From assembly GCA_964606765.1 (NCBI GenBank), contig CAZSIR010000004.1:1-58485 (forward strand): 58,485 nucleotides of DNA, in the 5' to 3' direction. This document shows, one piece after another, positions 3,233-22,255 of this stretch (positions are counted from its first letter, which is position 1; each line of letters starts with the position of its first letter). The position numbers were made by a program, and so were the translations under genes. The notes beneath the pieces were generated by a model. That model did no database searches and was not told the origin of the DNA. It worked only from the letters and a program-made list of their open reading frames with translations. The DNA comes from an uncultured Bordetella sp. (GTDB taxonomy: Bacteria > Pseudomonadota > Gammaproteobacteria > Burkholderiales > SG8-41).

Positions 3233-3244
3233 GGCGGCAGGGTA

Positions 3245-5023
3245 TCACCGCTGCGGCTCCGGCGCAGACATCGCGCGGATGCGGTCGCGGGTCTGCTCGA
3301 GGTCCTGCTGCCAGCTGCGATCGTTGTGGATGATGGTCGGCTTCAGCAGGATCACCAGTTCACTTTTGGTGTTGGTCACATCGCGCTGGCGGAACAGGTT
3401 GCCCAGGCCCGGCACGTTGCCGACGCCCGGCACCTGGCTGCGGTCGTTGACCGAGCGCTGCCGCATCAGCCCGCCAATCGCAACAATGTTGCCGTCCTGC
3501 ACGCGAACAACGGTGTCGGTTTCATTGACGTCGCTGGAAGCCAGCGGCAGCGTGAATGAGCCGAGGCTGCCGAGGTCGATCAGCTTGCGCTGCTCGGTCA
3601 CATTGCTCACCGAGGGATGGATGTGCAGGATGATGTTGTTCTCGGCGTCGATCTGCGGCGTCACATCCAGCGCGATGCCCGAGAAAAACGGCGCAACGGT
3701 GATCGTCGGCGTCACCGTGGTGTTGGTGCCGCTGGTGCTGGAAGTGGTGCTGACGTTGGTGACGAAAAAGTCGTCGGTACCGACCTTGAGCACGGCTTTC
3801 TGGTTGTTGATCGTTGCCACCCGCGGGCTCGACAGCACATTGACGCCGCCCTGGGTTTCAAGGAAGGACAGCAGCGCGGCAAAGTTCTGGGTCTGCAGCG
3901 CCAGGCCAAACACGCCGCCGGCCGCACCGGAACCCAGAGCGAGGCCGCTGGCCACGGTGCCCACGGAACCGCCGACCAGTGCATCGCTGTTGAAAATCGT
4001 GCCGTTGCCGGAAACGGAAGGTGTCCCGAGCGTGCCGATCGCGCCCTGCCGCTGCAGCACCGTTCCAGGAGAAATCACGCCTGTGCTGTAACGGGTGTTG
4101 CCATCACGGAACGCAGCCCAGTTGACGCCGGCCTGATAACCGTCGCTCAGCGAAACTTCGATGATCTTGGCTTCCAGAACCACCTGGCGCTCGACGATCA
4201 GCTGCATGGATTTGAGGAACTGCTCGACACTGCGCAGTTCGGGGGGCATCGCCCGCACCACGACCACGCCGGATTGCGCGTTGACGACCACGCTGCGTCC
4301 GGCACCGCCGCCGAGTATGGCGTTCAGCGATTTCTGCACGTCACCCCAGAAATCCGAATTCGAACTGGTGGTCACGCGTGAACTCTCGGTCGCGCGGGTG
4401 GTGGCGCCGCCGGTCGGGCCGGTCACCGGAACGGGAACCGCCCCGGGCGCGGGCGACCCGGGACTGGAAGAGCCGTCGGTAATCGAGCCGGAGCTGACCC
4501 GGGTATCGGTCTGGCCGCGGCGCTGGGCCTGCAGATAATTGACCTGGAAAATGCGCGTCTGGAGCGCAGCGGGCAGAACGACGATGCGGTTGCCCTGCAC
4601 GGTATAGTCAAAACCGTAGAGGTCGCGCAGCGTATTCAGGGCCTCGGTCACCGTCACGTCCTTCAGGTTGACCGAAAGCTCCCCCTTGACCTCGGGATGC
4701 AGCACCATGCTGTACGGCGTGCCGGAAACAATCGCCAGAAACACCTGCCCCGCAGGCGCATTGTTGACGGAAAGATCAAACCGGGTTTCCGGCTTTTGCA
4801 CATCCGCCGCCGGCATTTGCACCACCAATGGCGGCAGCAGCGCACGGCTCACGGCATCCGCAGCAGCCGGTTTGCGATCCTTCGCCGCCTGGTCCAGCTC
4901 CTGGTTGATGGTGTTCCCGGCAACATTCGGGTGCCGCTGCGGCAACTCTGCGCAGCCCGCGACAGTCGCAATCATTACGACGATCATCCATCGTTGCATG
5001 TCGTTCCGCCTGTTCATGTCCAT
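3245..5023 (-). CDS. mshL: MSHA pilus secretin MshL (lipoprotein)
   Basis: 592 aa. Lipobox IATVAGC. C-terminal secretin domain (VLSSPRVATINNQKAVLKVG ... GNLFRQRDVTNTKSELVILLKPTII). Confidence 0.9.
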   Translation of the reverse strand: MDMNRRNDMQRWMIVVMIATVAGCAELPQRHPNVAGNTINQELDQAAKDRKPAAADAVSRALLPPLVVQMPAADVQKPETRFDLSVNNAPAGQVFLAIVSGTPYSMVLHPEVKGELSVNLKDVTVTEALNTLRDLYGFDYTVQGNRIVVLPAALQTRIFQVNYLQAQRRGQTDTRVSSGSITDGSSSPGSPAPGAVPVPVTGPTGGATTRATESSRVTTSSNSDFWGDVQKSLNAILGGGAGRSVVVNAQSGVVVVRAMPPELRSVEQFLKSMQLIVERQVVLEAKIIEVSLSDGYQAGVNWAAFRDGNTRYSTGVISPGTVLQRQGAIGTLGTPSVSGNGTIFNSDALVGGSVGTVASGLALGSGAAGGVFGLALQTQNFAALLSFLETQGGVNVLSSPRVATINNQKAVLKVGTDDFFVTNVSTTSSTSGTNTTVTPTITVAPFFSGIALDVTPQIDAENNIILHIHPSVSNVTEQRKLIDLGSLGSFTLPLASSDVNETDTVVRVQDGNIVAIGGLMRQRSVNDRSQVPGVGNVPGLGNLFRQRDVTNTKSELVILLKPTIIHNDRSWQQDLEQTRDRIRAMSAPEPQR

Positions 5024-5388
5024 TATTTTGTTTTGCCCGTTCCGCTTTTCACGCTGCCTGCCGCGCGTTTTTCGACCAGCGGATACAGTTTCAGCACCGT
5101 GGTTTCCGCACCATCCTTCAACACCGCTTCGCTTTCACTCAGCTTGACCAGGCGCGCCGAGCCGTAACGTCCGCCCAGCGCCACCATCTCACCGCTGATC
5201 ACCGCCACCTTGCGGCCCTGCGACAGCATCACCGACTGCAGCACCGGGCCTGCCGTCACAGCACCCTCGGCCGCCGGCGCCGACAAAACGCCCGGGGGGC
5301 GCGTCGGATCCTTCAGTCCCTGGGCGCACGCTGCCGCCGCGCAAAAAGCGCCGAGGGTCAGCATCGTTCCTGTGATCCAGTGTCTCAT
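5023..5388 (-). CDS. mshK: MSHA biogenesis protein MshK
   Basis: 121 aa with a signal peptide and an LKDPTRPP motif. 1-nt TAATG overlap with the mshL start and ATGA overlap with the mshJ stop. Confidence 0.75.
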   Translation of the reverse strand: MRHWITGTMLTLGAFCAAAACAQGLKDPTRPPGVLSAPAAEGAVTAGPVLQSVMLSQGRKVAVISGEMVALGGRYGSARLVKLSESEAVLKDGAETTVLKLYPLVEKRAAGSVKSGTGKTK

Positions 5389-6086
5389 ACCACCAGCCAG
5401 GCCTTGTTCAGGCTCAAAGTATGCAGCGTCAATGTCAGACGCAGCCGCGGGTGATCCGCAGCATCAAGCGTCACTTTGCCCCAGAACAGCTGCCAGGGCA
5501 AAGCTTCCAGCCGCGCAAGATAGGCGTGAAGCTCGGCATAAGTGCCCTCGACCGAAACCTCGAAACTGTGCTGATAGATGCTGCGGTCGGCAACCCCGGC
5601 CGGCGCTTCGGCTGCCGGCTGCGCGGACTTTGCCGGGGGCTGCGCGACGCCGCCGGTCTGGTAACGCTGCACCGGCAGCTTGCGCAGGCTGACCAGCGTC
5701 AGGCCACGCTCTTTTTTCAGCACGCCTTGCAGCAGATTGGCGACCTGATCCGGCGGCACCAGCTGTTTCTGCAGACCAAGCAGGCGCTCGTCGATTTCCG
5801 CGACCTGTTTGCGCAACTCGTCGCGATAGCGGCGCTGGACTTCGTCCGGACTGGCCTGGCTGCGGCTTGCCGTGATCAGCAATTCGCCGGCCTTGATCGC
5901 GGTGCGGGCTTCCGACAACTGCTGCGAAAGTCGCTTCTGCTCGACTTCCTGCGGCCCCAGCAGCAGGGCATCCAGCAGCATCACGACCACAGCCACACCG
6001 CCGGCGGCGATCAATACCCGCTCCCGCAGCGTGCGCGCATTGAACAAAGCCGTCCATTGCTGCCAGCGTTTGGCCAGGTCGGACAT
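5385..6086 (-). CDS. mshJ: MSHA biogenesis protein MshJ (PilO-like)
   Basis: 233 aa with a single N-terminal TM helix followed by a coiled coil. Position and coupling within the mshI-N operon. Confidence 0.75.
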   Translation of the reverse strand: MSDLAKRWQQWTALFNARTLRERVLIAAGGVAVVVMLLDALLLGPQEVEQKRLSQQLSEARTAIKAGELLITASRSQASPDEVQRRYRDELRKQVAEIDERLLGLQKQLVPPDQVANLLQGVLKKERGLTLVSLRKLPVQRYQTGGVAQPPAKSAQPAAEAPAGVADRSIYQHSFEVSVEGTYAELHAYLARLEALPWQLFWGKVTLDAADHPRLRLTLTLHTLSLNKAWLVV

Positions 6087-6763
6087 CAGCGTTTTTCTCC
6101 GCGCGCATCAGCGCCATCCCCGGGCTCGCCGGTGGTCAGATTGAATTCCAGGAAACGCGGCGCATCCACCACCGGCTTTTCCCCTTCTTTCGCCGGCACC
6201 GCTGGCGACAAGGCCGGCGCCGGTCGCTTCATCTCCAGTGCCGAGAACGCCCGCCCCTTGAGCGCGGGTTCATTGTTCATTTTCTGGATGTACGCCGGCA
6301 GCAGATCCGCACTGACGACCCGGCCCTGAATCGCCACTTCTCCTGCGCCACCCACGGTGAATCCGGTCAGCCACAGGCCATCCAGCGACTGCCGCGAAAA
6401 AGCCTGCAGGTAGTCGGCAAAACCCTTGCGGTTGCCCAGCGCGCCGCCCTCGAGTACCGCCATCGCATCGCGCGCCGATTTCAATTCCATTTCCAGGCGC
6501 TGCACCTCGGCGGCCAGTCCGGTATTGCCCCTCTGCGCGCCGCCCTCGCCCTTGAGACGGTCGGTATAGGTGCTTTGCGCCTTGAGCAGGCCCTGCGCGG
6601 AAACCAGCTCCGTACGCAGACCTTCGACTTTCTGCTGCCCGTACCAATTCACGCCCAGCATCACCACCGCGGCAAGTCCGGCAAGCAGCGCCGCGCGGTT
6701 CAAGGTCAGCAGCAGGCGCGGTCTGCGAAAAGCCGGGCCCAGAAGATTGATGTACTGGCTCAT
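6086..6763 (-). CDS. PilN-like fimbrial assembly protein (C-terminal half of Vibrio-type MshI, here a separate ORF)
   Basis: ORF 6086..6811 trimmed to MSQYINLLGPAFRR, followed by a TM helix and a coiled coil. Its ATG overlaps the mshI stop (ATGA at 6760-6763). Confidence 0.7.
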   Translation of the reverse strand: MSQYINLLGPAFRRPRLLLTLNRAALLAGLAAVVMLGVNWYGQQKVEGLRTELVSAQGLLKAQSTYTDRLKGEGGAQRGNTGLAAEVQRLEMELKSARDAMAVLEGGALGNRKGFADYLQAFSRQSLDGLWLTGFTVGGAGEVAIQGRVVSADLLPAYIQKMNNEPALKGRAFSALEMKRPAPALSPAVPAKEGEKPVVDAPRFLEFNLTTGEPGDGADARGEKR

Positions 6764-7692
6764 CCTGCGGCACGCTCCTCGCGCATGGCCGCGCCGATCA
6801 GCTGCAGGCATTGCGACTGCCGCAAGGGATCGCGCAATTCGGGCACCCCGGGAAAGTCGACGACCTGCTCCAGATCCAGCATGACCACCGGCACCGACAG
6901 ATTGGTCCCCAGATATTCGATCAGCCGCTCGCCGTCCGGCACCTGGGAAACAATCAGCCGCGACACCGCAAGGTTGCGGAACTGGCGGTCGAAATTGTCC
7001 AGTGAACGCTGCAGTTCAAGCGTCACCCGGTCATAACGCGCCTCAACATCGACGCCCGATTCGAAATCCTTCAGCGAAACTTCGATCTGCCGCGCCTGAT
7101 AGAGCTCACCGCCGCTGGTAAACGTCAGCATCGCCCCGGCATTGTCAAAACACAGCATCGCCAGTCCACGCCCTTCTTCCTCAAGCAGGCGGGCCACGTT
7201 GCGCTGTGCGAGCTCGGGAATGTCGATGACCTCGAGATTGATGTCGGCGTCATTGAACGGCCGAACCGTCGCTGCTATGGCCTCGTTGCGCGCGGAAACC
7301 GCGAGCATCTGCGCCGCGCGACCCGCGTGGTCCCCGCCGGGAATGTGCAGGGCATCGACCATCGCCGTTTCGACGGGATAATCGATCATGTCCTTGAGCG
7401 ACCAGCGCACCGCATTCTTCGCCTCCGCCGCAGGCACTGCCGGGGCATCGACGGCAAAGGTCTGGTATTCGCCGCTCTTCAGCAGCGTCGTGCACTGGTA
7501 ACGCTCCAGATTCAGTTCCTTGCGCAAACGCTTCAGCGTTTCGACATCGCCGCCTTCCTTGCGGAAGGATTCGCAGAGCAGGATTTCCGGTCGCGGTTTT
7601 CCTGCGACCAGCACATGCGACAGATCTATGCGATCAGCATGCAGATTCAGGCAGAGCCACCCTGGACGTTGTTTTTTACCAAATAGGTTCAT
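6760..7692 (-). CDS. mshI: MSHA biogenesis protein MshI (PilM-like actin-fold part)
   Basis: 310 aa starting MNLFGKKQRPGWLCLNL. It is the first gene downstream of the AT-rich promoter gap 7693-7813. Confidence 0.8.
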   Translation of the reverse strand: MNLFGKKQRPGWLCLNLHADRIDLSHVLVAGKPRPEILLCESFRKEGGDVETLKRLRKELNLERYQCTTLLKSGEYQTFAVDAPAVPAAEAKNAVRWSLKDMIDYPVETAMVDALHIPGGDHAGRAAQMLAVSARNEAIAATVRPFNDADINLEVIDIPELAQRNVARLLEEEGRGLAMLCFDNAGAMLTFTSGGELYQARQIEVSLKDFESGVDVEARYDRVTLELQRSLDNFDRQFRNLAVSRLIVSQVPDGERLIEYLGTNLSVPVVMLDLEQVVDFPGVPELRDPLRQSQCLQLIGAAMREERAAG

Positions 7693-7813: not shown

Positions 7814-10800
7814 CTAATAATTTTCCCGCATATAAATGCGCTGATCGGTGCCAGCGCGTATCCCGAAGCGGGCCCGTGACGACGGGTCCTTGTCGTGGGC
7901 CGCACCACACCACTGGCCGCGCAAATGCGCCAGCGACCCCGCCGTTGCAGCCGGCGCAAATGCCGGACAGGCCGCGGCGGCCGCGCCGGTACCGAGGTTG
8001 ACCGCCAGATCCACGCTGCCATTGTTGCCGGCGCCCGGCGCACTCAGCGAAATCGTGCCGCGCCCGGCAGACAGGGCGCTGACCGCCGTCACCGTCGTTT
8101 CACCCGCATTGAGGTTGCCGATGTAGTTCCCCAGACCCACGTTCCCCGTACCCACCGTTGTACACGTATCCAGGGTGTTCGTTGCAAAGAACGTGCCTGT
8201 CCAGAATTGCGTTTCAAATGGCACTTTGAGCGGCAATTGCTGGGAACCGCTGGCCCCAGTCAGGCGCAAACGGCCGAATCGCATCGCCTTGCCCGTCGAA
8301 AACGCAATGCCGTTGCCGGCGCTCGCCTGTCCAAATCTCGCCGGGTTTGTCGAGTAAGCGACACTGTCGGTATCGATGACATTGATGGCCAGCGAAATTT
8401 CGGCATTGAACGGAGCCACCGGCGTGGACCGCACAAACAGGATTCCCGTGCCAGAATTGAAAGTCAGTGTTCCGGTGCCGTCGCCGTTGGCGACAATGGC
8501 CGGATCAGGCGCCGTGACCGTGCTGGCATCCAGCGTGCCGCTGGCCGCGCTGTAGGCCTTGCCGGTCAGGCTGCCCGTGGTGATCTTGAAAAATGCCTCG
8601 CTTGCCGGCGTCGTGCCCTTGTAATTCTGGGTGGTGCCCCCCGCCAGATTGCGCGCGGTCACGGTCAGCACCGGCTCCATGCCCGAGGCATAGTTGAAGC
8701 GCTGGCCGACATAGGTGAATGCGCCCGCGGTGCATGCCGTGGCAAACAGGGGCGTATTGGCGCTGACATCAAAATGATGCGGCGTGAAACGCCCGACATT
8801 ACCGCTCGTGGTCCCCGTAACATCGCCCACACCCAGATAATCGCCGTCACCGACTCCGGGTGTGATCGTGATGATGCCCACCTCTCCCCAGGTGACATTG
8901 GTCACCGTCGCCGCGCCATTGCTGAACAGCCCGCCGGCAATCGTGCCGTTGCCCAATACGGGGTTGCTGGTCAATCCCAGGCCTGTGGCCAGCGCGGTAG
9001 TCAGCCTTACGCCTTCGGCCGTTGTTTCCTTGCCAAAGTTGGGCGTCGGATTTCCCTGGGCATTCACCGCTGTTGCAGTCAGGGTCATGCTTTCGCCCGC
9101 CTTGATGAACGCCGCGCCACCAGCATCGGCCGCGCCCGGATTGGCGCCATTGTCAGCAGTACGCCGGATGCCGGTCACGGTAAATCCCGCCGGTTTCACA
9201 ACAAAATTGTTGGACACCCCCGCCATGTAATCACCGGAACCATTGATGTTGTGGCGCGCACTCAGCCGCAGCGAACCGACATCGGGATAGTTCAGTGTGA
9301 AATTCGCCGTCGAGTCGGCGCCGAAAGTCATCGACTTGGCGGTCCAGGTCGAGACGCCACTGCCGGGATTGGCGGCAATCGCCGTCGAGCCATTGTTGTT
9401 GATCGTGACCTGCTGGCCCGTCTGGCAGGCGGCGGGATTCACGCATTGGAAAGCCAGTTCAACATTCACGTCGCCGTTGAACAGCCCTGTGCATACACCG
9501 GTGACGGGATCCGCCCTGATCGCCCGCAATGTCTGTGAACCTGAAACAGTACCGGCGGTCTGCGTTGGAACAGCGCTGAACGCAAAACCGGTTGACTGAA
9601 AATCCAGACTGCAGGTCTCGATCCCGCCGTTGAAACACAAGGTCGCGGAAGATGGTGCCGGAGAAGTCGTACCGGCACCCAGCACCACGGCGCCTGCCGT
9701 GGTTTTGCGCAGTTGGGCCGTCGTCATGCCCCCCGAAAAGCTGATCGTGTCACCACCCAACCATCCCGTTGGCGACAAGGTGGTCGTCACGCTGCCCGTA
9801 TACTGCGTGGAGCAGCTTGCATCCGCACAGGCTTTAACGGTCACGGTGGCCGGCTCGCAGGTCAGTCCGGTTCCGTTGTGTTCGATGCGGACATGGCTGA
9901 ATGCAATCGCGCACGGACGCGTGATGTCGCGAATGGCGATGACCTCTGAATCCGTAAGCACTTGGTTATAGATGCGCACCTCGTCGAGTTGCCCGTTCAG
10001 GTAGCGGATGGTCCCGGCGCCCGAGACTTCGACTCGGCCCAGGCTGGCAAACGCCGTGCCGACAACCCCGGTGTCCACCGTGCCGCTCGCGCTCAGCGCA
10101 CCGTCGACATAAATCCGGGCCGCGCCGGTGGTCGAATCACGGGTCAGCACCACATGCCGCCAGAGGCCGTTGTTGATCGCCGCGGCGGACTTCACCGAGG
10201 TGCCGTCACCCTTCTGGACTCCGATGTGGCCCGTGCTGTCGAGGAAGCCCCAGAAAATGTCATCGCCTCCGCCGCTCTGCTCGACACCGGTCACGCCCGG
10301 TGCCTGCCATGCGGTGTCATTGCCGGTTTGCGTGGTCCTGATCCAGAATGCGAGGCTGGCCGTGGCATTCAGTTCATTCGACAGTCCGTTGATCTGGATA
10401 TAGCGGGAACTGCCGTCCAATTGCGCGCCATTGCACACCTGCGCCGGCACCGGCGTTGCCCCACCCTGCGCAGTACCGTTGAGTCCGTTACCGCTGGAAT
10501 CCGCCACATCTCCTGCCGCGCTCCATGTGGCTTCGTCGAGCTTGTAATAGGCCCGCGGCACCGGCAGCGTACCACCGCAATACGACAGCGCCGACTGCGG
10601 GATGAACTGGAAGCCACCAGTGGAGGGCCCGCTCCAGCTCAGCTGGGCCACCGCGTCGCCGCCGTTTTCGTAAAACTCCATTATCACCGGATAACGCTGC
10701 CCGGCGGTCAGCGCGATTGCAGCGCTGTCATCATTGGTCGCCGAGTGATCTGTCCAGTTGTTGATGACCAGATTGCCATCCACATACAGCCTCACGCCAT

Positions 10801-12457
10801 CGTCGCTGCGGGTGCGGAAAGTGTAGTTCCCGGTCACCGGAGCCGTCACGAAACCCTGCCAGCGCACACTGAAATTATTGGCGCCGATGCCTGCAACACC
10901 AGGCGTCCCGGCCGCCCAGTCAAAATCGACCGGTCCGTCGATGCGCAAAAATGCATTGCCCGTCAGGTTCATCTGGTCGAAATACGTGCCGCGCAACCCC
11001 GGCAGATAGCCGATCTCGGCAAAAAACGTGGTCTGTGAATTGGCTGCAATCACGCCACCAGCCGTGGACATGACATTGTTGACGGTCAGCGTAAAGGACT
11101 GCGCCGGCAGTGTACTGGTGGTCAGTGTGACGGTCTGTCCGTCGACCCCGAGCACGGCTGAGGATATTGTGGCGCCGCCGCTCAAGGCGTAATTTGCCGT
11201 GTTCTGCGCTGTCGCGGGGGTCACCGGCAGGGAGAAAAACACCTCCACCTGGTTGGTGGTCCCGCATGCCAGATTCGCCGAGACCAGCACCGGCGGCGGC
11301 CGTGTGTAGTACACCGTGATCTGGATCTGGTCCACCGTCACCGTATGCGCGCCGCCCGCCGCGCTCGGCTTGGTTGCCGTGAACACCGCACCGAAATTCG
11401 CATTATTGATGTCGGCCGGAGTCCAGGTCGTGCCCCAGAGATCCGTCGGACTGCCGTGTATTTCAACCGTGTCGGTAGTCGTGTAGGTGGTTCCCGTGGC
11501 CCGGTTTGCACCGACCGCCGTGCCCGCCTTGACCAGGTTCAGCGAATTGTCCCGGCTGCCGCCATTGTTGGTGCTGTTCGATTTTCGTTCGACACGCACT
11601 TCAATGCCGTCAATGACCGCACCCGAAGGAATGTTAAACCCGTAGTTCACGCACTGCAGGGGGTCCGAGACAGTACCGTCCACGCTGACCGAGGCATAGG
11701 CATTGTTGCTCGATTCAGCCAGTTCCGGTGTCGTCCAATTGGCCCCGGCACCGCCAAGACTGCTGCAGTTAACCTGGCTTTGTGTTTGCGACGATGTATC
11801 GTAATAAACGGTGATCTGAATCTGGTCCACCGTCACCGTATGCGCGCCGCCCGCCGCGCTCGGCTTGGTTGCCGTGAACACCGCACCGAAATTCGCGTTG
11901 TTGATGTCGGCCGGCGTCCAGGTCGTACCCCAGAGATCGGTCGGACTGCCGTGCGTTTCAACCGTGTCCGTGGTTGTGTAGGTGGTCCCCGTGGCCCGGT
12001 TTGCACCGACCGCCGTGCCCGCCTTGACCAGATTCAGCGAGTTGTCCCGGCTGCCGCCATTGTTGGTATTACTCGCTTTCCGTTCAACACGCACCTCAAT
12101 GCCGACAATGGTGGCCGTTGCCGGAATATCAAAACCGTAGTTCGTGCATTGCAGCGGATCCGTGACTGTGCCATCCACACTGGCTGAGGCATACACATTG
12201 TTGCTGGATTCCGCCGATTCAGGCGAGGCCCAGTTGGCGCCGGGGCCCCCGAGACTGACACAGGCCGCTTGCATGTAGGTTTGTGATGCGGCATATGCAT
12301 TCGCATGCAATGTCAGCCCGACCAACACCAGCATCAATGCAGCCAATGGCCTTTTCGCGACATCGCCCAAGAAACGACGCATGCAGTCCCGCATTAATTG
12401 CAGGGCATTGCAACCATCTTTGTAAAATTCCTTCAAATATTTGATTTTATTAATCAT
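7814..12457 (-). CDS. mshQ: giant MshQ-like pilus-associated adhesin, paralog 1 (2 x 165-aa repeat, Ig-like, PA14, LamG, MshQ C-terminal core)
   Basis: 1547 aa. Hydrophobic signal-like segment RPLAALMLVLVGLTLHANAYA. PA14 signature (GLRGTYFDQ...FSVRWQGFV...GNYTFRTRSDDGVRLYVDG...AQLSWSGP). LamG/ConA-like signature (LDGSSRYIQI...LAFWIRTT...LWRHVVLTRD...RIYVDG...GQLDEVRIYNQVLTDSEV). The C-terminal ~700 aa are colinear with the neighbouring paralog and end in CPAFAPAATAG..LRGQWCG..RARFGI..IYMRENY. It occupies the last position of the mshE-Q operon. The start could also be Met22 (12394) or Met26 (12382). Confidence 0.8.
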   Translation of the reverse strand: MINKIKYLKEFYKDGCNALQLMRDCMRRFLGDVAKRPLAALMLVLVGLTLHANAYAASQTYMQAACVSLGGPGANWASPESAESSNNVYASASVDGTVTDPLQCTNYGFDIPATATIVGIEVRVERKASNTNNGGSRDNSLNLVKAGTAVGANRATGTTYTTTDTVETHGSPTDLWGTTWTPADINNANFGAVFTATKPSAAGGAHTVTVDQIQITVYYDTSSQTQSQVNCSSLGGAGANWTTPELAESSNNAYASVSVDGTVSDPLQCVNYGFNIPSGAVIDGIEVRVERKSNSTNNGGSRDNSLNLVKAGTAVGANRATGTTYTTTDTVEIHGSPTDLWGTTWTPADINNANFGAVFTATKPSAAGGAHTVTVDQIQITVYYTRPPPVLVSANLACGTTNQVEVFFSLPVTPATAQNTANYALSGGATISSAVLGVDGQTVTLTTSTLPAQSFTLTVNNVMSTAGGVIAANSQTTFFAEIGYLPGLRGTYFDQMNLTGNAFLRIDGPVDFDWAAGTPGVAGIGANNFSVRWQGFVTAPVTGNYTFRTRSDDGVRLYVDGNLVINNWTDHSATNDDSAAIALTAGQRYPVIMEFYENGGDAVAQLSWSGPSTGGFQFIPQSALSYCGGTLPVPRAYYKLDEATWSAAGDVADSSGNGLNGTAQGGATPVPAQVCNGAQLDGSSRYIQINGLSNELNATASLAFWIRTTQTGNDTAWQAPGVTGVEQSGGGDDIFWGFLDSTGHIGVQKGDGTSVKSAAAINNGLWRHVVLTRDSTTGAARIYVDGALSASGTVDTGVVGTAFASLGRVEVSGAGTIRYLNGQLDEVRIYNQVLTDSEVIAIRDITRPCAIAFSHVRIEHNGTGLTCEPATVTVKACADASCSTQYTGSVTTTLSPTGWLGGDTISFSGGMTTAQLRKTTAGAVVLGAGTTSPAPSSATLCFNGGIETCSLDFQSTGFAFSAVPTQTAGTVSGSQTLRAIRADPVTGVCTGLFNGDVNVELAFQCVNPAACQTGQQVTINNNGSTAIAANPGSGVSTWTAKSMTFGADSTANFTLNYPDVGSLRLSARHNINGSGDYMAGVSNNFVVKPAGFTVTGIRRTADNGANPGAADAGGAAFIKAGESMTLTATAVNAQGNPTPNFGKETTAEGVRLTTALATGLGLTSNPVLGNGTIAGGLFSNGAATVTNVTWGEVGIITITPGVGDGDYLGVGDVTGTTSGNVGRFTPHHFDVSANTPLFATACTAGAFTYVGQRFNYASGMEPVLTVTARNLAGGTTQNYKGTTPASEAFFKITTGSLTGKAYSAASGTLDASTVTAPDPAIVANGDGTGTLTFNSGTGILFVRSTPVAPFNAEISLAINVIDTDSVAYSTNPARFGQASAGNGIAFSTGKAMRFGRLRLTGASGSQQLPLKVPFETQFWTGTFFATNTLDTCTTVGTGNVGLGNYIGNLNAGETTVTAVSALSAGRGTISLSAPGAGNNGSVDLAVNLGTGAAAAACPAFAPAATAGSLAHLRGQWCGAAHDKDPSSRARFGIRAGTDQRIYMRENY
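11288..12277 (-). repeat. in-frame tandem duplication, 2 x 495 bp (2 x 165 aa), inside mshQ paralog 1
   Basis: The same DNA string (gatctg(a/g)atctggtccaccgtcaccgtatgcgcgccgcccgccgcgctcggcttggttgccgtgaacaccgcaccgaaattcgc) occurs at 11318 and 11813, an offset of 495 nt. Protein aa 66-219 and 231-384 align without gaps. Confidence 0.95.
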
Positions 12458-12590
12458 TTTTATATTGGCCCGATGGCGGCATTTAATACCCCGCTACAGC
12501 CGAATCCGCAAAAACCCGCTGCCTCAGTTCTGCAGATTTCCGGCCCCTGCTATTTCAGAACAGCGGGCGCCGGCATCGTTCCATCGAATT

Positions 12591-15500
12591 TCAGTTGGTG
12601 TTCTCTCGCGTGTAAATCGATTCGTCATTGCTGCGATTGATGCCGAATCGCGCGCGCGCCACCGGATCGCGGGTCGCCGTCGTGCCGCACCACTTGCCGC
12701 GCAGATAGGCCTTGTTGCCGGCCGTCGCCGTCGGCGCAAACGCCGGGCATGCGTTCGCGGTGGCTGCGCCGCCAAGATTGACCGCGACATCCACGCTGCC
12801 GTTGTTGCCCGCGCCCGGCGCGCTGAGACGTATCGCCGTACGACCGGCCTGCAGGGTGCCGGTCGTGACCGTTGCAGTGGTTTCTCCGGCATTGAGATTG
12901 GTCAGGTAATTGCCCAGGCCGACATTGCCCGCAGCCAGCGGTGTGCAGCTGTCATCGACATTGGTGATCCAGAACGTGCCGTTCCAGTATTGCGCCTCGA
13001 CCGGCATGTTGAGCGGCAGCAGCTGCGAGCCGCTGACGCCGCCCAGCCGCAGGCGGCCATAACGCAGCTGCGTCGTCGGTCCGGTGATCGTGTGGTCATT
13101 GACGGCATTGTTGTCGACATCCAGGTCATAAACCGTCGTATACGCCGTCATCAATACGCCATCCGCGTCCGTCGGCGCGATGCCGAACTGAATCTGCGCA
13201 TACGGGCCGTCGGGCGGATCGTCTGGTGTGGGACGGCCGACCGTCACGCGCGCCGCATTGTTGCCGGTCACGCTCAGCACGCCATTGGCCCATGCCGGTG
13301 CAGCGACGGCATAGCCGCCGCTCACGCGCGCCGTCAGCGCCGCGAACGGCGCGACATTGCGCGCGCCGATATCGAAAGCCGTCCTGGCATTGTTCGTACC
13401 CGACGCCGTGGGGTCATGTCTGGCATAGCTGCCGGTGTAATTCTGCGTCGTTACGCCCTGCGAATTCAGCGCGGTCAGCGTGAAAGCCAGTGTCAGCGCC
13501 TCGTCCATGTAGGTAAAACCGGATGCCGGCGTGCAGGCGGCCACCGCGCGGTTGGTCAGTGCAGCCCCCGACACCGCAAAACGCCTGGGCCTGAAACGGC
13601 CGACATAACCCCCGCTGCCTGCGCCGTCAAAGCCGCTGTTGCCGGTGATGTTGACGCCGGCGGTGATGTAGTTGGTGACATTCGCAGCCAGGATGACGTT
13701 GCCGGCCTCGCTGTAGCACCAGTCGGTCGGCGTGGCCGTGCCGCCGCTCAGGGCCACGGTTCCCGCGCTGCTGCACAGCGGCGCCGATCCGGCAGGCAAT
13801 GCCGGTGGAGCGCCGCGCGATACAGTCCCCAGCGCCGTACCCGGCAGGTTGGCACTGGGCGTGACCGTGACCGTCGCCGCAAAGTTCGGCACGGTGCCGT
13901 TGTCGGTGATGTTGACACCGGCATCCGGGATGCCGTCATTGTCGGCGTCTTCGCCCGACGCCCATTGAAACGCCGCAACGGTCATCGTGAAATTGTCGCC
14001 GGCCGGAACCAGCACGGCGCCGGTCGCCGTGTTCGAATGCGCAATCGGCGTGGCGATGTTGGCGCCGCGGAACGCCAGGCCGAAGGGTCGCACCACGAAC
14101 AGGTTCGAGGAACCGGCCATCTCGTATCCGGCCACCGCGGCATCGAGGTCATAACGCGCATGCAGCGAAATCTGCCCGGCGTCCGGATAGCTGATGACGA
14201 TGTCGGCTTCGGAATTGGCATTGAACAGCAGCGGCACGCCGCCACCGGTGGCGTAGTAGGACGCGGCGCCAGAGGCCGCATTGTCATTGCTCGTCGGCAG
14301 TGCCGTGGTGACGGCATTGTTGGTGATGCTGACCTGTCGCGCGGCGCAGCTGCCGGGGCTGTTGCATTCCGCGCCCATCTCGACATTGCGCGTCCCTGCC
14401 GCGGGAAATCCGGCAACGCAGGCCAGGCTTGCGGTGTCGGTGCGTATCGCCTGCAGGCGCAGTGTCTTGGCATTGAAGCCGGTATTCGACGGTTTGCCCG
14501 AGATTTGCGTCGGTATCACATCGTTGCCGTCGGTGATGTTGCGGAAACGGAAACCGGCCTGCGCCATCGTGAACGAAGGATCGTCGGCGGCAATCGCCGC
14601 CCCCGAAGTCTCGCTCAGCACGCCGCTGACCGCATTGAAGCCGAAGGTTTCCGAGCTTGTCGCGAGATTTGCATAACGGAAGGACAGATCCACCGAAGTC
14701 GAACCTGCTGCAAACGTATAGGTCGCCAGGCCGCTGCCGGCCACGCCCGGCGTCAGCGTGCCGCCGCCGGAAAGGATGCCGATCCAGCTGCCCTTGCCGT
14801 TGGTGGTCGACAGATTGAGGGTCAGGCCATTGGCGCTTACCGGCGCATGCGTCGCACTGTGCGCGGTGATGGTGATGGTGTGCGTGTCGCAGGCCACGCC
14901 GCTGTTGGCATGGGTGATCGAAAAATGGTTGATGCCGGGACGCAGCGCAAGAATATGGGTGGCGCCGGTATCACTGGCCGGCGGGTTGGAGTGTGTAGCC
15001 GTGCGTATGCCGGTTGCGCCTGCGGCCGCGCGCAATTCGTAATTCACTTCCATGGATATGCCGAGATCATTGGTCGGTGTCTCGGAAGACCTGTCCGCAG
15101 CCTCGGTCATGCCGGCAGGCGGCGTCCAGGTCGCGCCTGAGTTGGCCGAGTGCGAAGACACCAGCATGGTGTTGGCCACCGTTCCGGTATTGATGTCCGG
15201 CGTGGCATGGGTGTACGCAACACCCGTCGCCTGTCCGTTCTCGACCACGATCGGATTGGTCGTGTCGACGCCGGAGAAACTCGTAATGACCCCCACCGCA
15301 CCCGCATGCACCGGTGTGCCGCCAAAGGTCCAGGTATAACTCGCAGGTTCGCTGCCAGTCGCCACCCGCCGGTAAACCGCCAGGCGGTTGCCAAAGCCGC
15401 CGGTACCGCCGCCACCGGTCTGTTCAATCAGACGGATCAAAGTCCAGCCCGCCGGCGGCGTCAGCGTGACGGTGCAGGCGCCGCCGTTGGTATTGCTGCA

Positions 15501-16442
15501 GGGGCGCACGGTAATGCTGGCAATCATCACGTCATCCGTGATCGTGCCTGCGGGCACGTTGACGGTCAGACTGTCCGGCACAAACGGGGTCGGGCGCAAG
15601 GCGAAGGTGATGCCGGCCCAGGAGTCGTTCTGGTTCGCGTTCTGCCGCCACTGCAGCATGCTGACCAGGCCCGCCGTGGCCTGATTTTCATCCGCAAGCC
15701 CCACGGCATGGTCGCCGCCCGTGGTGGAATCGTAGGCAGTACCGCTCATGCGCGCAGTAAATCCATTGGCGGTATTGATGATCAGCGCATTGTCGTCGCT
15801 GCTTGCCACAGCGGACACCGCCCACGCACCGTTGGTCACCGTGGTTATGGCCGGGGGCGTCCAGTCGCGCACTGCAGCTGAGTTGCCGGTCACATCAGCA
15901 ACATCGAACGGCGTCGTGGCATCCACGCCCCGCCATACCGCAATCTGTCCAGACATGCCGGCTGCCCCACCCTGCCAGGTGGCCGGCAGCGTTACAGTCG
16001 GGTTGGCATCGCCGCCGGCAAGAAACCGGTAGAACGTCATGACCTTCAGGTCGTTGGCGCCCACCTCGCGCAGCGAAGAACTGCGAAGGGTCCACCCCGT
16101 TGGCGCAGCCGGCTCAGCAGTATTCGTCGGCCGCCCCGCAACGATGAGCACGGCAAAATCGCCAGCCGCTGTGCCGCCCGGAATGGCGGGCGTTATGCTG
16201 GCTCCGGTACCTATGGTCTGCGCACCCGCCGCCACAAAAGTAATCGCGCCGCCACTGCCGCCGGTGCCCGCAACAGAAATGGCATTGGCCGCAGCGCGAA
16301 ATCCGATTTGTGACTGCGCCGGCAACGCAAGCAACATTCCACAGCACAACAGAAAATATCCGAGACTCTCCCGCAGAATATTGCCTCTCGCGAAAAAATT
16401 ATATAAGTATATGATTTTAAATAATTTTTTCACGATCCGCAC
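12591..16442 (-). CDS. mshQ: giant MshQ-like pilus-associated adhesin, paralog 2 (two divergent ~215-aa N-terminal repeats plus MshQ C-terminal core)
   Basis: 1283 aa. GTG start overlapping the mshP stop by 13 nt. The C-terminal ~780 aa are colinear with paralog 1 and end in CPAFAPTATAG..LRGKWCG..RARFGI..IYTRENTN. The N-terminal aa 66-284 and 291-502 are internal repeats sharing P.GWTL, (Y)R..(A).G, GVD.T.P and ALRP landmarks. Confidence 0.8.
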   Translation of the reverse strand: MRIVKKLFKIIYLYNFFARGNILRESLGYFLLCCGMLLALPAQSQIGFRAAANAISVAGTGGSGGAITFVAAGAQTIGTGASITPAIPGGTAAGDFAVLIVAGRPTNTAEPAAPTGWTLRSSSLREVGANDLKVMTFYRFLAGGDANPTVTLPATWQGGAAGMSGQIAVWRGVDATTPFDVADVTGNSAAVRDWTPPAITTVTNGAWAVSAVASSDDNALIINTANGFTARMSGTAYDSTTGGDHAVGLADENQATAGLVSMLQWRQNANQNDSWAGITFALRPTPFVPDSLTVNVPAGTITDDVMIASITVRPCSNTNGGACTVTLTPPAGWTLIRLIEQTGGGGTGGFGNRLAVYRRVATGSEPASYTWTFGGTPVHAGAVGVITSFSGVDTTNPIVVENGQATGVAYTHATPDINTGTVANTMLVSSHSANSGATWTPPAGMTEAADRSSETPTNDLGISMEVNYELRAAAGATGIRTATHSNPPASDTGATHILALRPGINHFSITHANSGVACDTHTITITAHSATHAPVSANGLTLNLSTTNGKGSWIGILSGGGTLTPGVAGSGLATYTFAAGSTSVDLSFRYANLATSSETFGFNAVSGVLSETSGAAIAADDPSFTMAQAGFRFRNITDGNDVIPTQISGKPSNTGFNAKTLRLQAIRTDTASLACVAGFPAAGTRNVEMGAECNSPGSCAARQVSITNNAVTTALPTSNDNAASGAASYYATGGGVPLLFNANSEADIVISYPDAGQISLHARYDLDAAVAGYEMAGSSNLFVVRPFGLAFRGANIATPIAHSNTATGAVLVPAGDNFTMTVAAFQWASGEDADNDGIPDAGVNITDNGTVPNFAATVTVTPSANLPGTALGTVSRGAPPALPAGSAPLCSSAGTVALSGGTATPTDWCYSEAGNVILAANVTNYITAGVNITGNSGFDGAGSGGYVGRFRPRRFAVSGAALTNRAVAACTPASGFTYMDEALTLAFTLTALNSQGVTTQNYTGSYARHDPTASGTNNARTAFDIGARNVAPFAALTARVSGGYAVAAPAWANGVLSVTGNNAARVTVGRPTPDDPPDGPYAQIQFGIAPTDADGVLMTAYTTVYDLDVDNNAVNDHTITGPTTQLRYGRLRLGGVSGSQLLPLNMPVEAQYWNGTFWITNVDDSCTPLAAGNVGLGNYLTNLNAGETTATVTTGTLQAGRTAIRLSAPGAGNNGSVDVAVNLGGAATANACPAFAPTATAGNKAYLRGKWCGTTATRDPVARARFGINRSNDESIYTRENTN

Positions 16443-16972
16443 TCATAACGCGGTGCCGCTGCAGTGGGGTCCTTGCATTTCGCCACCGTGACCACCACGC
16501 GCCGCTCGACATAACCAGTGGGCGGTACGGTCGGCGCCGCCACGCAGGCTCCCTGATTGCAGGCTGTCGCAGTGATTTCATAAATATGGATGTTGCGGTT
16601 GGCTTCGGTCGTGATGCTTTCGTTGCAGCCGATGGTCACCGAGAACCCCGTCAATGAGCCTGCCATCGCGGCGGTGTTGATCACACCCGTGGGACAGGCA
16701 GCGAAGGCAGCGGCGCCCGGCGCAATCACATTGTCGGGATCCAGCGCGCGGTAAATCGCCCAGTTGATCCCGGCGCGCGCCGCGTAATACGCGCGCACGC
16801 CGAGCACATCGTTCTGCACGGTGTTCTGCTGCAGGCCGGTGAACTTCACCATGAAAGCGCCCAGCGCCGACAGCACGACCAGCAGGAAGATGCCGGTGAC
16901 GATGCTGAAGCCGCGCATGCGCTTCGACATTGCGCCTGCAGCACCTGCGCCCGGGAGTCGCGTAATGATCAT
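16430..16972 (-). CDS. mshP: MSHA biogenesis protein MshP
   Basis: 180 aa with N-terminal hydrophobic segment MRGFSIVTGIFLLVVLSALGAF. The ATG at 16972 forms an ATGA overlap with the mshO stop. An alternative start is MSKRMRGF at 16930. Position between mshO and mshQ. Confidence 0.7.
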   Translation of the reverse strand: MIITRLPGAGAAGAMSKRMRGFSIVTGIFLLVVLSALGAFMVKFTGLQQNTVQNDVLGVRAYYAARAGINWAIYRALDPDNVIAPGAAAFAACPTGVINTAAMAGSLTGFSVTIGCNESITTEANRNIHIYEITATACNQGACVAAPTVPPTGYVERRVVVTVAKCKDPTAAAPRYECGS

Positions 16973-17790
16973 GGCGAATTGCTCACCTGCGCCTGCTGAA
17001 AGAGGCGCACACGCTCAACCCCGCCGGGCACGGCACTGGTGATCGGCAGAATGATCGACACCGTTGAAATGCGCTCGCTCAATGCGCCGGGGGCATAAAC
17101 AAACTGGCAACTGTCGGTGCCGCTGGTCTCGACGTTGGAGGCCAGCACCGCCGTGGTGGCGCCCGCCGGCGGCGCCACCTGCGCAGTGCTGTAGCCATAA
17201 CCCGAATAGCGGATCAGCTGGCCGTTGGTGCAGCCGTAGGTAACCGGCCCCGTGACCACATGAAAGCGCTTGGCGGGGGACGGTTCGGGAAACTGCTTGG
17301 CCGTTATGTTGATGGTCGGCGCTGCAACGCTGGAAAACGCCGTGCGGTTGTCACCGGAATAGGCATTGGAGGTCGTGCCCGTGCTGTAGAGGTTGTACAC
17401 CACGATCTGATTACCCGCCGCCAGGATCGGCACCGGCCCGAGCACATCGAATTGCGCATCGGCAATGCTGAAATCCAGGATATTGCCCAGGCCGCCGCTG
17501 TCGAGTTCGGCGCGGTAACGCCCGCCGCCGCTGGTCTCGATATATTCGACAAACTTGCCGCTGCCATCCACCCGCACGCTGTTGGGCAGCGCCAGCCGCA
17601 GATCGCGCGTGATCCGCCGCAGGGCGGTATCTGCTGCATCGCTCAGCGCAGCACGGCGTGCGGCATCGGCATAACCTTCGACCGGCCTGCGGATGAACAA
17701 GGCCGTCGCCGCCGCAACGATGGAAGTGATGGCGATCACCACGATCAGTTCGACCAGCGTCACGCCGGCGTCTTTTCGCATCATGCTCAT
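16969..17790 (-). CDS. mshO: MSHA minor pilin-like protein MshO
   Basis: ORF 16969..17814 trimmed to [21 protein letters not shown] (prepilin-type N-terminal methylation motif). The start lies 1 nt after the mshD stop. The upstream ATG at 17814 is also possible. Confidence 0.7.
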   Translation of the reverse strand: MSMMRKDAGVTLVELIVVIAITSIVAAATALFIRRPVEGYADAARRAALSDAADTALRRITRDLRLALPNSVRVDGSGKFVEYIETSGGGRYRAELDSGGLGNILDFSIADAQFDVLGPVPILAAGNQIVVYNLYSTGTTSNAYSGDNRTAFSSVAAPTINITAKQFPEPSPAKRFHVVTGPVTYGCTNGQLIRYSGYGYSTAQVAPPAGATTAVLASNVETSGTDSCQFVYAPGALSERISTVSIILPITSAVPGGVERVRLFQQAQVSNSP

Positions 17791-17791
17791 A

Positions 17792-18442
17792 TCAGGGCAG
17801 GGCATTGGGCGCATAGCGGGTGCGATAACCGTCCAGGACCACCGTGGTGCCGGGACCAGTCACCGTCACTGTCACGCGCAGGGACAGCGGCCGGCCATTG
17901 GCATCCGTCGCCGCGACGGTGGCGCTGGTGGCTGTCAAAGCGGCCGGCGCCACCGCGACCGCGACGTTGTACAAGCCCAGCCCGCCGATGGCTGCGCCGT
18001 CCACGCTGCTCGGCACGCCCGCCGCGAGACTGCTGTAATCATTGACATTGTCGTACGGCGTCGTGCCGCTGCCGCGGGTTTCGCCTTCGGCCCCCATGCC
18101 TTCCAGGGTAGCGGCACAGCGTGTCGGATCAGCGGCATTCACGGGGCCGGTCGATTGCGCAGTCGCCGCGTTGGCGTCATCCGGATCACAATAGGTGAAG
18201 GGCATCGCCAGCACTTCCTCGAGATAGGCCTCGGCAATCGCCAGCGCCTGCTTTTGCACCAGCGGATCGGCGCTGGCGCGGGTCATGTAATTCATCACGC
18301 CGAGTATGCCGGCGAGGCCGACGCTGATGATGCCGATGAATACGACCAGCTCCACCAGCGTAAAACCGCAACGCCGCCTGCTGGCACGCACGGCGCCTGT
18401 GACGGCCGGCAAATTCGCTGCGATTTCAGTTGGCCGCGACAT
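17792..18442 (-). CDS. mshD: MSHA minor pilin MshD
   Basis: ORF 17792..18547 trimmed to the Met at 18442. Prepilin motif RRRCG/FTLVELVVFIGI. The leader would be unusually long (26 aa), and an internal GTG at 18391 is an alternative start. Confidence 0.65.
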   Translation of the reverse strand: MSRPTEIAANLPAVTGAVRASRRRCGFTLVELVVFIGIISVGLAGILGVMNYMTRASADPLVQKQALAIAEAYLEEVLAMPFTYCDPDDANAATAQSTGPVNAADPTRCAATLEGMGAEGETRGSGTTPYDNVNDYSSLAAGVPSSVDGAAIGGLGLYNVAVAVAPAALTATSATVAATDANGRPLSLRVTVTVTGPGTTVVLDGYRTRYAPNALP

Positions 18443-18884
18443 AACCCGTATTGGCTGTAATGGTGATCTGCCGCGCAGGATCGCCGGCAATGCTGCTGGT
18501 GAAAGTGATGGTGACTGCGCCCGCACTTGGCGAGCCCAGGCCATCAAAGCTGAAGTTCACCGGGGTCAGCGTGACGCCGGCCGGGGCCTGTTCCCTGGCT
18601 TTGCCGCCACTTACGGGATAATCCAGAAGGTTTGGGTCTGCAAGAGGGCATCCAGCCACATTGGCGGCCATGACTTCGTTCGCGGTGACGCAGACATAAA
18701 CCGGGCGCCGCCAGGCAATCGCCGTTTTCTGCGCCAGCCGGATCACCGCCACGGACTTGTCGTAAAAACCGCGCGACTCGAAGGTGCTGGCCTGAAAAAA
18801 ACGCGGCGCAGCAACCGCCGAAATAATCGCCAGTATGCCAATCGTAACCACCAGTTCGACCAGCGTGAATCCCGCGGCTTTCAT
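18426..18884 (-). CDS. mshC: MSHA minor pilin MshC
   Basis: ORF 18426..18962 trimmed to MKAAG/FTLVELVVTIGILAI. A GGAG Shine-Dalgarno lies 6-9 nt upstream. Confidence 0.75.
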   Translation of the reverse strand: MKAAGFTLVELVVTIGILAIISAVAAPRFFQASTFESRGFYDKSVAVIRLAQKTAIAWRRPVYVCVTANEVMAANVAGCPLADPNLLDYPVSGGKAREQAPAGVTLTPVNFSFDGLGSPSAGAVTITFTSSIAGDPARQITITANTGYVAAN

Positions 18885-18900
18885 GGCGACTCCGTATTCG

Positions 18901-18937
18901 AAAAAACGGGGGTGCGCAGCAACGTACGCTCCCCCGC
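18901..18937 (-). terminator. rho-independent terminator/attenuator between mshA (distal copy) and mshC
   Basis: The minus strand reads GCGGGGGAGCGTACGTTGCTGCGCACCCCCGTTTTTT. The stem is CGGGGG-A-GCG / CGC-A-CCCCCG and is followed by a T6 run. It lies 46 nt after the mshA stop and 17 nt before the mshC start. Confidence 0.7.
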
Positions 18938-18982
18938 TTTCAGGCAACCTGATCAACCTCAATCAGGCATGGGCTTAAACGA

Positions 18983-22248: not shown

Positions 22249-22255
22249 CCGGCGC

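Follow-up and report, generated by a model that had tools for sequence, protein, structure and literature searches.

The window analysed here, a stretch of 58,485 nucleotides of an uncultured Bordetella sp. (positions 1 to 58,485 of contig CAZSIR010000004.1, assembly GCA_964606765.1), contains a locus for a mannose-sensitive hemagglutinin (MSHA)-type type IV pilus in which two giant open reading frames (ORFs) of the mshQ kind follow one another. All features of the window that are given coordinates below lie on its minus strand. The upstream paralog, Q2, spans 12591..16442 (1283 residues when read from the GTG at 16442), and the downstream paralog, Q1, spans 7814..12457 (1547 residues). An earlier note on this DNA had reported both ORFs; their positions and lengths hold, and both frames are intact. 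By sequence, Q1 and Q2 are members of the MshQ/DUF6701 family, as that note had proposed. The Pfam model DUF6701 (PF20419), with a gathering score of 27, matches residues 938-1545 of Q1 at 391.7 bits and residues 648-1280 of Q2 at 329.5 bits, and it scores 544 bits on the gene that, in an MSHA locus of Shewanella (L065 in our numbering of recovered loci), takes the place of a terminal mshQ. Many homologues carry the JGI name "MSHA biogenesis protein MshQ", and no NCBIfam model names Q1 or Q2.

The DUF6701 core occupies residues 853-1547 of Q1 (7817..9901) and residues 504-1283 of Q2 (12594..14933). In precomputed Pfam annotation of the two proteins and their orthologues, it consists of DUF6701 together with DUF6701_2nd, DUF6701_3rd and DUF6701_4th (for Q2, these hits were taken on the gene-caller's version of the protein, P0121). 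BLASTP aligns residues 853-1546 of Q1 with residues 504-1281 of Q2 colinearly, at 35% identity and an E value of 4e-77, which bears out the claim that the C-terminal 700-780 residues are homologous and colinear; the sequence blocks quoted in its support (GRFTPHHF/GRFRPRRF, RFGRLRL/RYGRLRL, NAGETT, CPAFAP... and IY(M/T)REN) were all found. The heads in front of the core were said to have nothing in common, and comparing the Q1 head with the Q2 head indeed gives matches at chance level (E of 0.9 or more). Among the Pfam matches of Q1 and Q2 at E values up to 0.01 there is no PilC/PilY1 beta-propeller, and no PilY1 or PilC chain is among their PDB sequence matches. Thus, Q1 and Q2 are like PilC/PilY1 in organisation, not in ancestry: as in those proteins, the genes come after PilV/W/X-type minor pilins, the N-terminal part is variable, and the C-terminal part is conserved.

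Along the minus strand, the locus runs from mshE, mshG and an mshF-like gene through three major-type pilins, then GspH-domain, PilV-like and 281-residue pilins, to mshP, Q2 and Q1, and on to PilM-, PilN- and PilO-like genes, a small gene, a secretin, an AAA_22 protein and a TPR protein, which correspond to mshI-N. Both giant genes therefore sit at the mshQ position, directly after the minor pilins of an MSHA-type locus, and about 70 related loci, including that of Shewanella, have mshQ at this position. The further statement that the MSHA operon ends with the two ORFs does not hold, because mshI/J/K/L/M/N homologues (1245..7692; PilM_2, PilN, PilO/T2SSM, secretin, AAA_22 and TPR matches) continue on the same strand directly downstream of Q1. 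The minor pilins form a single set (16969..18962: the 281-residue protein at the PilW position, the PilV-like protein and the GspH-domain protein, recognised by N_methyl, PilV and GspH matches and prepilin motifs), followed by a single mshP-like minor pilin at the PilX/PilK position (16430..16972), which is assigned from a PilX_N match with an E value of 1.3e-3 and from synteny in all loci.

The Q1 head begins with two repeats, R1a (residues 57-221; 11795..12289), a CBM (carbohydrate-binding module)-like beta-sandwich, and R1b (residues 222-388; 11294..11794), followed by an Ig-like module (residues 389-485; 11003..11293), a PA14 module with an SDDG motif (residues 486-635; 10553..11002) and a LamG or concanavalin-A-like module (residues 636-852; 9902..10552). 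Self-BLAST of whole proteins gave the identity match alone, and repeats were compared as separate halves by BLASTP and by profiles. The two repeats of about 165 residues that had been described in Q1 are unmistakable: residues 57-219 and 222-384 are 86% identical (E value of 3e-95), and a 300-nt stretch within R1a/R1b is 92% identical in DNA. AlphaFold2 models R1 as a beta-sandwich with a predicted local distance difference test score (pLDDT) of 96.5, and the nearest PDB structures in Foldseek are CBM36, CBM4-2 and CBM35, all weak matches (E values of 5e-4 to 3e-3 and template modelling (TM) scores of 0.39-0.51), with CBM29 also among the weak matches (TM-score of at most 0.51). No model in the Pfam copy searched matches the R1 domain, which is marked by the motif DLWGTTWTPADINNxNFG. 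Its homologues (to Q1 residues 57-221; P0240-P0269) are stand-alone proteins of 170-290 residues in many metagenomes, some of them with a TIG domain or with the C-terminal sorting domain of type IX secretion.

Of the three further modules that had been read in Q1, the Ig-like one is borderline, with a Big_5 match (E value of 1.2e-4, 23.2 bits) just below the gathering score of 23.6; Big_5 is annotated in several Q1 orthologues. The other two are secure. PA14 scores 96.9 bits (gathering score 24) and is also matched by GLEYA at 37.1 bits (gathering score 26.2), and Laminin_G_3 scores 74.6 bits on residues 681-839 (gathering score 27.6). The PA14 module matches the PA14 domain of the Clostridium thermocellum RsgI3 sensor (PDB 6qe7) with an E value of 2.5e-49 and has a weaker match in the PA14 lectin region of MpIBP, an ice-binding adhesin of Marinomonas; the module contains a double-Asp calcium/sugar motif in the sequence ...RTRSDDGVRLYVDG..., for which sugar binding is putative. 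The LamG module matches PDB 4qvs with an E value of 3.7e-7.

The Q2 head consists of two unnamed beta-sandwich domains of one family, the N-terminal-most and most variable RA (residues 45-288; 15579..16310) and RB (residues 289-503; 14934..15578). These are the two divergent repeats of the earlier note, about 215-245 residues in length; their relationship is weak in BLASTP (29% identity, E value of 4e-4) and clear in hhalign (probability 99.4%, E value of 2e-21). AlphaFold2 models the head as two beta-sandwich domains with a pLDDT of 86.7. The family is large, with 2635 representative clusters at E values up to 0.001, mostly of proteins of 1000-1500 residues and with up to four copies of the domain per protein, and has no model in the Pfam copy searched. 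Foldseek against BFVD gives 110 matches to the Q2 head at E values up to 0.001 (best E value of 2e-27), which include "minor tail proteins" of Mycobacterium and Gordonia phages; single-domain viral matches have target-normalised TM-scores of 0.65-0.76 and root mean square deviations of 3.4-4.2 A, at 15-26% sequence identity between the domain and the phage proteins. RB also matches the PHROG family phrog_3329 with an E value of 4.5e-8. A Foldseek search of the PDB with the two-domain head returned generic double-jelly-roll noise, at TM-scores of at most 0.16, and these matches were set aside. In both proteins, the heads fit ligand binding, the ligands probably being glycans.

To place the tandem in context, we surveyed 73 loci from species-representative genomes that were recovered through the core alignment, and five more that were found by exact-protein look-up. 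Copies of mshQ were counted as core-bearing ORFs with a profile built from the core, and neighbouring msh genes were mapped by tblastn. The locus scan used a four-sequence alignment, two other alignments (A1 and A2) being too diverse, and the survey is in consequence biased to relatives that keep two short motifs. We define the clade of the window as metagenome-assembled genomes (MAGs) labelled Burkholderiales, "Bordetella" or Betaproteobacteria whose mshI is at least 74% identical, and counted copies in the 18 clade loci, including the window, in which both mshP and mshI are visible. Two mshQ genes are present in 13 (the window, L001-L005, L008, L011-L013, L015, L077 and L078), three in one (L024) and one in four (L010, L014, L025 and L030), so that 14 of the 18 have at least two; two loci cut at an edge have at least three (L006) and at least two (L016). 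Outside the clade, L042 alone has two mshQ genes, and about 40 loci have a single one, among them those of Gallionella, Thiobacillus, Sulfuriferula, various Gammaproteobacteria and Shewanella.

Tandem mshQ is thus ordinary in the lineage of the window and rare elsewhere. The gammaproteobacterial loci have the Vibrio gene order and a single terminal mshQ, and the statement in the earlier note that Vibrio-type loci carry one mshQ describes the rule both for them (Vibrio/Shewanella order) and for most of the betaproteobacterial loci recovered. A pairing of a Q2-type with a PA14-LamG-type protein occurs in at least five other genomes, which, together with the 14 of 18 clade loci, indicates a conserved arrangement and not a peculiarity of this genome. 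Two copies are usual within the clade only, and the exact head pair of the window was found in no other genome recovered. All of the tandem-bearing genomes recovered are metagenome-type contigs or MAGs. One MAG has, on a single contig (JAHCAI010000002.1), two complete MSHA loci, L013 and L024, about 6 kb apart as fetched, with two and three mshQ genes and thus five MshQ paralogs in all. The nearest named, sequenced species that we found is Pelomicrobium methylotrophicum, which we take to be a cultured isolate. Its locus (L080, VPFL01000001.1) has a single mshQ of the Q2 type (RA-RB), followed directly by a transposase instead of mshI-N, and the run of its pilin genes is interrupted by methyltransferase and Glyco_transf_41/TPR genes.

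Several lines of evidence indicate that the two paralogs are old and that both are maintained. Orthologues of Q2 are 63-87% identical over more than 95% of its length, and orthologues of Q1 are 78-80% identical over the full length. In a neighbour-joining tree of the C-terminal 470 residues, the Q1-type and Q2-type cores form clades of their own, among which the single-copy MshQs of other taxa are dispersed, and the tree argues against a recent duplication. The ratio of nonsynonymous to synonymous substitution rates (dN/dS) is 0.05-0.18 for every Q1 module compared with L003 and 0.07-0.11 for every Q2 module compared with L001; for comparison, it is 0.12-0.16 for the mshL secretin and 0.17-0.19 for mshP. 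From these values, selection maintains both Q1 and Q2. We had considered that one of them might be a pseudogene or a redundant copy, which we reject because of the intact frames and the dN/dS values.

Mapping the modules of the window onto all MshQs recovered revealed a turnover of heads that is concentrated in the N-terminal-most module of each protein. In Q1 orthologues, the Ig-PA14-LamG-core series is conserved, with PA14 76-89% identical throughout and Ig and LamG 62-85% identical in most loci (LamG is 37% identical in L001). The paired R1 repeats are present, besides the window, in L003/L007 and L077 only, and at least L001, L002, L006, L008 and L013 have a single module of the RA/RB family (26-30% identity) in their place. 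Q2 orthologues keep RB at 63-91% identity, and RA ranges from 91% identity in L001 through about 30-35% in L002, L004, L013 and L028 to undetectable in L005. Cores of the Q2 type also occur with other heads: LamG in L006, L011 and L024, RA-like plus G8 plus LamG in L003/L007, and G8 in L077. L078 pairs its Q2 orthologue with a different MshQ, of a Thiobacillus type, and Gly_rich_2 and DUF5649 are also found on clade members. The picture of a constant core with exchangeable heads that the earlier note had drawn is correct in that modules and whole slots are swapped among relatives, but the heads do not come from unrelated pools, because the Q2-type module also occurs on Q1 orthologues. If the C-terminus docks on the pilus, the N-terminal-most module, where turnover is greatest, is the one furthest from the docking site.

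The last 145 or so residues behave differently. They form a putative docking module, at 7817..8245 in Q1 (ending in ...RARFGIRAGTDQRIYMRENY) and 12594..13025 in Q2 (ending in ...RARFGINRSNDESIYTRENTN). Identity between the Q1 and Q2 cores is 26-49% up to about Q1 residue 1404 and then 57-69% over this module. Nucleotide identity there is 0.56-0.68, and the same codon is used at 39 of 91 identical residues, which rules out recent gene conversion as the cause of the similarity. The pattern is tied to the clade. Compared with in-clade MshQs of other core lineages (n=16), Q1 is 28-33% identical in the mid-core and 62-72% identical over the last 145 residues; compared with MshQs outside the clade (n=40), it is 25-39% identical in the mid-core and 30-52% identical at the end, and the two ranges for the end hardly overlap. 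Q2 as the query gives a like pattern, with paralogs of a third type (L006 and L024) about 26-27% identical in the mid-core and 70-74% at the end. An orphan tandem pair outside any msh locus (in L047) has the reverse pattern, 55% in the mid-core and 40% at the C-terminal end. This pair (L047 4378-12183) is in a Burkholderiales MAG, and single DUF6701 genes outside msh loci occur in Janthinobacterium (L073 8948-12022; L068); neighbours of such genes include aminotransferase, YdjM, DUF3016 and dienelactone hydrolase genes. The extreme C-terminus of Q1 and Q2, I-Y-x-R-E-N, is conserved across the family and is the part predicted to complement MshP.

At 16433, a GTG overlaps the TGA stop codon of mshP (16430-16432) in the sequence GTGA. 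Reading from there gives the N-terminus MKKLFKIIYL, which matches those of Q2 orthologues (MKNYFKNKYL and MKIYFKNKYL). These N-termini, the overlap and the corresponding ATGA overlap at the mshP/mshQ junction of L001 make GTG 16433, three codons downstream of 16442, the probable start of Q2, and Q2 is probably translationally coupled to mshP. The Q1 leader (residues 1-56; 12290..12457) has an M-x-K-I-x-x-L N-terminus and then a putative hydrophobic signal sequence up to AYA/A. Read by eye, the putative signal sequences are ...LAALMLVLVGLTLHANAYA before ASQ in Q1 and ...FLLCCGMLLALPAQSQ before I in Q2, and the orthologues align there. The 5' ends of both genes form an AT-rich element (12425-12457 and 16405-16433) in this 62% G+C genome, conserved at the downstream mshQ start in L001, L002, L004, L005 and L077. 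In frame, it encodes M-(F/I/N)-K-I-(K/N)-x-L (KIIYL in Q2), and it precedes a leader of 45-56 residues. Our impression is that element and leader look like an extended signal peptide, as in autotransporters; the Pfam ESPR model gave no match on the extended Q1 and Q2 leaders. Alternatively, the AT-rich element could be a regulatory DNA site.

Between the two genes lies a spacer of 133 nt (12458..12590), with an AT-rich stretch that runs from its end into the Q1 start. It contains a hairpin (12530-12575; fold z = -2.7), which is not followed by the T-run typical of a terminator and lies on a stretch of about 45 nt without counterpart in the aligned spacers of other loci, and for the latter reason we assign it no role. 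The number of promoter and terminator matches did not exceed that in shuffled sequence, and neither Rfam families nor tRNAs were detected in scans of the window. Upstream of the pilins are mshE, an ATPase with an MshE-type c-di-GMP-binding N-terminal domain (MshEN is listed for the orthologues), and mshG, the platform protein (together 21019..23962). Two of the major pilins, MshA-like and in tandem (19477-19872 and 18983-19378), agree at 123 of 129 residues (95% identity). In L001-L003, this position holds one gene only, and the pair in the window appears to be a recent duplication. An ORF of the O-antigen ligase / protein O-oligosaccharyltransferase type (27396-29210; Wzy_C, Wzy_C_2 and PglL_A matches), about 3.4 kb upstream of mshE, is a possible pilin glycosylase.

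How might one pilus locus use two such proteins? In our preferred reading, to which we give a probability of about 60%, Q1 and Q2 are functional MshQ paralogs that serve as alternative tip adhesins and compete for one MshP-containing tip complex. MshQ, a large non-pilin protein, would have the role of PilC/PilY1 and be seated on the complex of minor pilins by which the MSHA type IV pilus is primed and capped. Q1 and Q2 would each consist of an extended Sec leader, an N-terminal stack of beta-sandwich, lectin-like modules that forms the ligand-binding head, and the four-domain DUF6701 core, whose last 145 or so residues, with the I-Y-x-R-E-N strand, would dock on the MshP-containing tip complex; the mshP-like pilin is the predicted acceptor of the strand. 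There is one mshP and one minor-pilin set even in loci with two or three mshQ genes. We conclude that it is the terminal module that fits this one minor-pilin complex and that the paralogs of a locus share a docking site. Because one minor-pilin set and one assembly machine are present, we propose that Q1 and Q2 compete for that site, which is the most economical model. Each pilus would then be capped by either Q1 or Q2, and one machine would produce two binding specificities. The targets are likely to be glycans or polymer surfaces, bound by Q1 through its CBM-like, PA14 and LamG modules and by Q2 through the domain that it has in common with phage tail proteins. Over evolution, the locus acts as a cassette holder, in which slots and N-terminal-most modules are swapped and the docking module stays uniform within the clade. 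The fullest form of this idea, a plug-and-play holder for tip adhesins with a homogenised clade-specific docking module, cores of diverse ancestry, a shared pool of heads that includes the domain known from phage tail proteins, and mixed pili set by competition, we put forward only tentatively, as somewhat doubtful when taken whole.

Several points weigh against the competition model. Family membership, position in the locus, intact frames under purifying selection, turnover of the heads and the uniformity of the C-terminal module in the clade are shown here; tip location, docking on MshP, competition and head ligands are inferred. The adhesin role of V. cholerae MshQ itself is still described as putative. 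As clues to ligands, the likeness of R1 to CBMs is a weak, fold-level resemblance of a predicted model, and PDB sequence and Foldseek searches found no solved relative of the Q2 head. The neighbour-joining tree is crude, and the sequences compared at the C-terminus are related, so that nominal p-values overstate their independence and are not to be taken literally. Finally, the cause of the uniform C-terminal module could be that paralogs of the same locus exchanged domains long ago, and not that they co-adapted to one partner; either history would still point to a shared partner.

Other arrangements must also be weighed. Both MshQs could be part of the same tip complex, the second bound to another minor pilin or to its partner, which would make a bivalent tip. 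The adjacency of the genes on one strand and the conservation of the pair across many genomes would fit such a complex, and four minor pilins (GspH-like, PilV-like, PilW-like and MshP) could offer more than one site. However, the common C-terminal strand and a terminal module that is 57-69% identical suggest the same site, copy number varies from one to three while the minor pilin set is unchanged, and the free exchange of slot occupants is hard to fit with a fixed heteromeric architecture; we regard a bivalent tip as unlikely. Alternatively, one or both proteins might be surface or secreted adhesins unrelated to the pilus that merely travel with the locus, possibly leaving the cell through the MSHA secretin as type II secretion substrates do. 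One published account refers to DUF6701 simply as a cell-surface protein domain (PMC11645318), and the L047 pair and the Janthinobacterium genes do lie outside msh loci. The position of the gene is difficult to reconcile with this: in about 70 loci, it is exactly between mshP and mshI or at the end of the operon, and the probable start of Q2 overlaps the mshP stop. Moreover, the C-terminal module tracks the clade of the locus and is divergent in the orphan pair, and a published prediction places the MshQ C-terminus on MshP (PMC13533445). Non-pilus adhesins are thus quite improbable here.

In the least probable reading, to which we give very little credence, the duplication is redundant, and one copy either decays or serves as a silent donor cassette for recombinational head switching, like the pilS cassettes of Neisseria. 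A tandem, same-strand layout with a common C-terminal sequence could in principle allow recombination, but Q1 and Q2 share at best a DNA stretch of 175 nt with 71% identity and have diverged at synonymous sites, which leaves little substrate for homologous recombination. In addition, the ORFs are intact over 1283 and 1547 codons, purifying selection acts in all modules, and the cores come from separate old lineages. On balance, alternative adhesins that compete for one docking site account best for the locus.

If this is correct, a single pilus machine presents several binding specificities, and the 145 or so residues that define the compatibility of an adhesin with its tip complex are marked out. 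In 2026, it was shown that PilC/PilY1 adhesins stay attached to type IV pili through a short C-terminal strand, which inserts into the minor pilin at the PilK position, and a corresponding attachment of MshQ to MshP was predicted. For this strand-docking idea, the present locus and its relatives form a natural comparison set: for two or three MshQ cores of ancient divergence there is one minor-pilin set, and the docking ends have stayed alike while the other parts, and the distal head module most of all, diverged or were exchanged. The analysis also defines two widespread, unnamed head domains, one of them common to phage tail proteins. A literature search found no paper that describes either tandem mshQ paralogs or C-terminal homogenisation. 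The earlier remark that nothing is known of what such heads bind, or of how two MshQ proteins share a machine, is too strong. MshQ has been proposed to be a PilC/PilY1-like tip adhesin, and the very end of the protein is predicted to donate a beta-strand to MshP, the PilK homologue (PMC13533445). In Vibrio fischeri, swaps of mshQ alleles change competitiveness in the squid host (PMC4094467). A gene named mshQ2 appears in a V. fischeri transcriptome study (PMC6299092), and deletion of V. cholerae mshQ results in fewer surface pili (PMC7096442).

Among the closest known systems is the MshQ of V. cholerae and Shewanella, which has the same core family, the position after mshD/O/P, the C-terminal strand, the large size, an N-terminal lectin-like region and the proposed role of a tip adhesin equivalent in function to PilY1 (PMC13533445, PMC7096442). 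There, however, mshQ is a single gene, in contrast to the tandem pair from two old core lineages described here, and the gene order is I...N-E-G-F / B-A-C-D-O-P-Q, as opposed to E-G-F-pilins-P-Q-Q-I-J-K-L-M-N. The heads also differ, as ours include R1 and phage-tail-like repeats that lack a model in the Pfam copy searched. In Colwellia and other organisms, a DUF3494 ice-binding domain is fused to DUF6701, so that the same core carries an entirely different head (PMC11645318), which supports the modular design of heads on a core. In those proteins, the heads are ice- or mineral-binding beta-solenoids; the description does not discuss a pilus context or report tandem paralogs (PMC11645318). Q2 has the fold of its head domain in common with minor tail proteins from tailed phages, namely those of Mycobacterium and Gordonia and uncultured Caudovirales, but shares that module alone and lacks a tail-assembly context.

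Two further systems have more than one tip adhesin. Neisseria PilC1 and PilC2 are likewise two paralogous tip adhesin and priming proteins with one minor-pilin set and one machine. They are closely similar proteins encoded by unlinked genes, unlike Q1 and Q2, whose heads are unrelated and whose genes are adjacent. Their core is a PilY1-type beta-propeller, which was not detected in Q1 or Q2. The short C-terminal plug of PilC docks on the pilin at the PilK position (bioRxiv 10.64898/2026.09.18.752573). In Myxococcus xanthus, PilY1.1, PilY1.2 and PilY1.3 have a conserved C-terminal part, N-terminal domains and origins that differ, and a predicted beta-strand complementation of PilX (PMC13190605), all of which resembles the arrangement here. 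But the core of the Myxococcus proteins belongs to another fold family, and each has a minor-pilin cluster of its own, whereas in the present locus one set is available to both Q1 and Q2.

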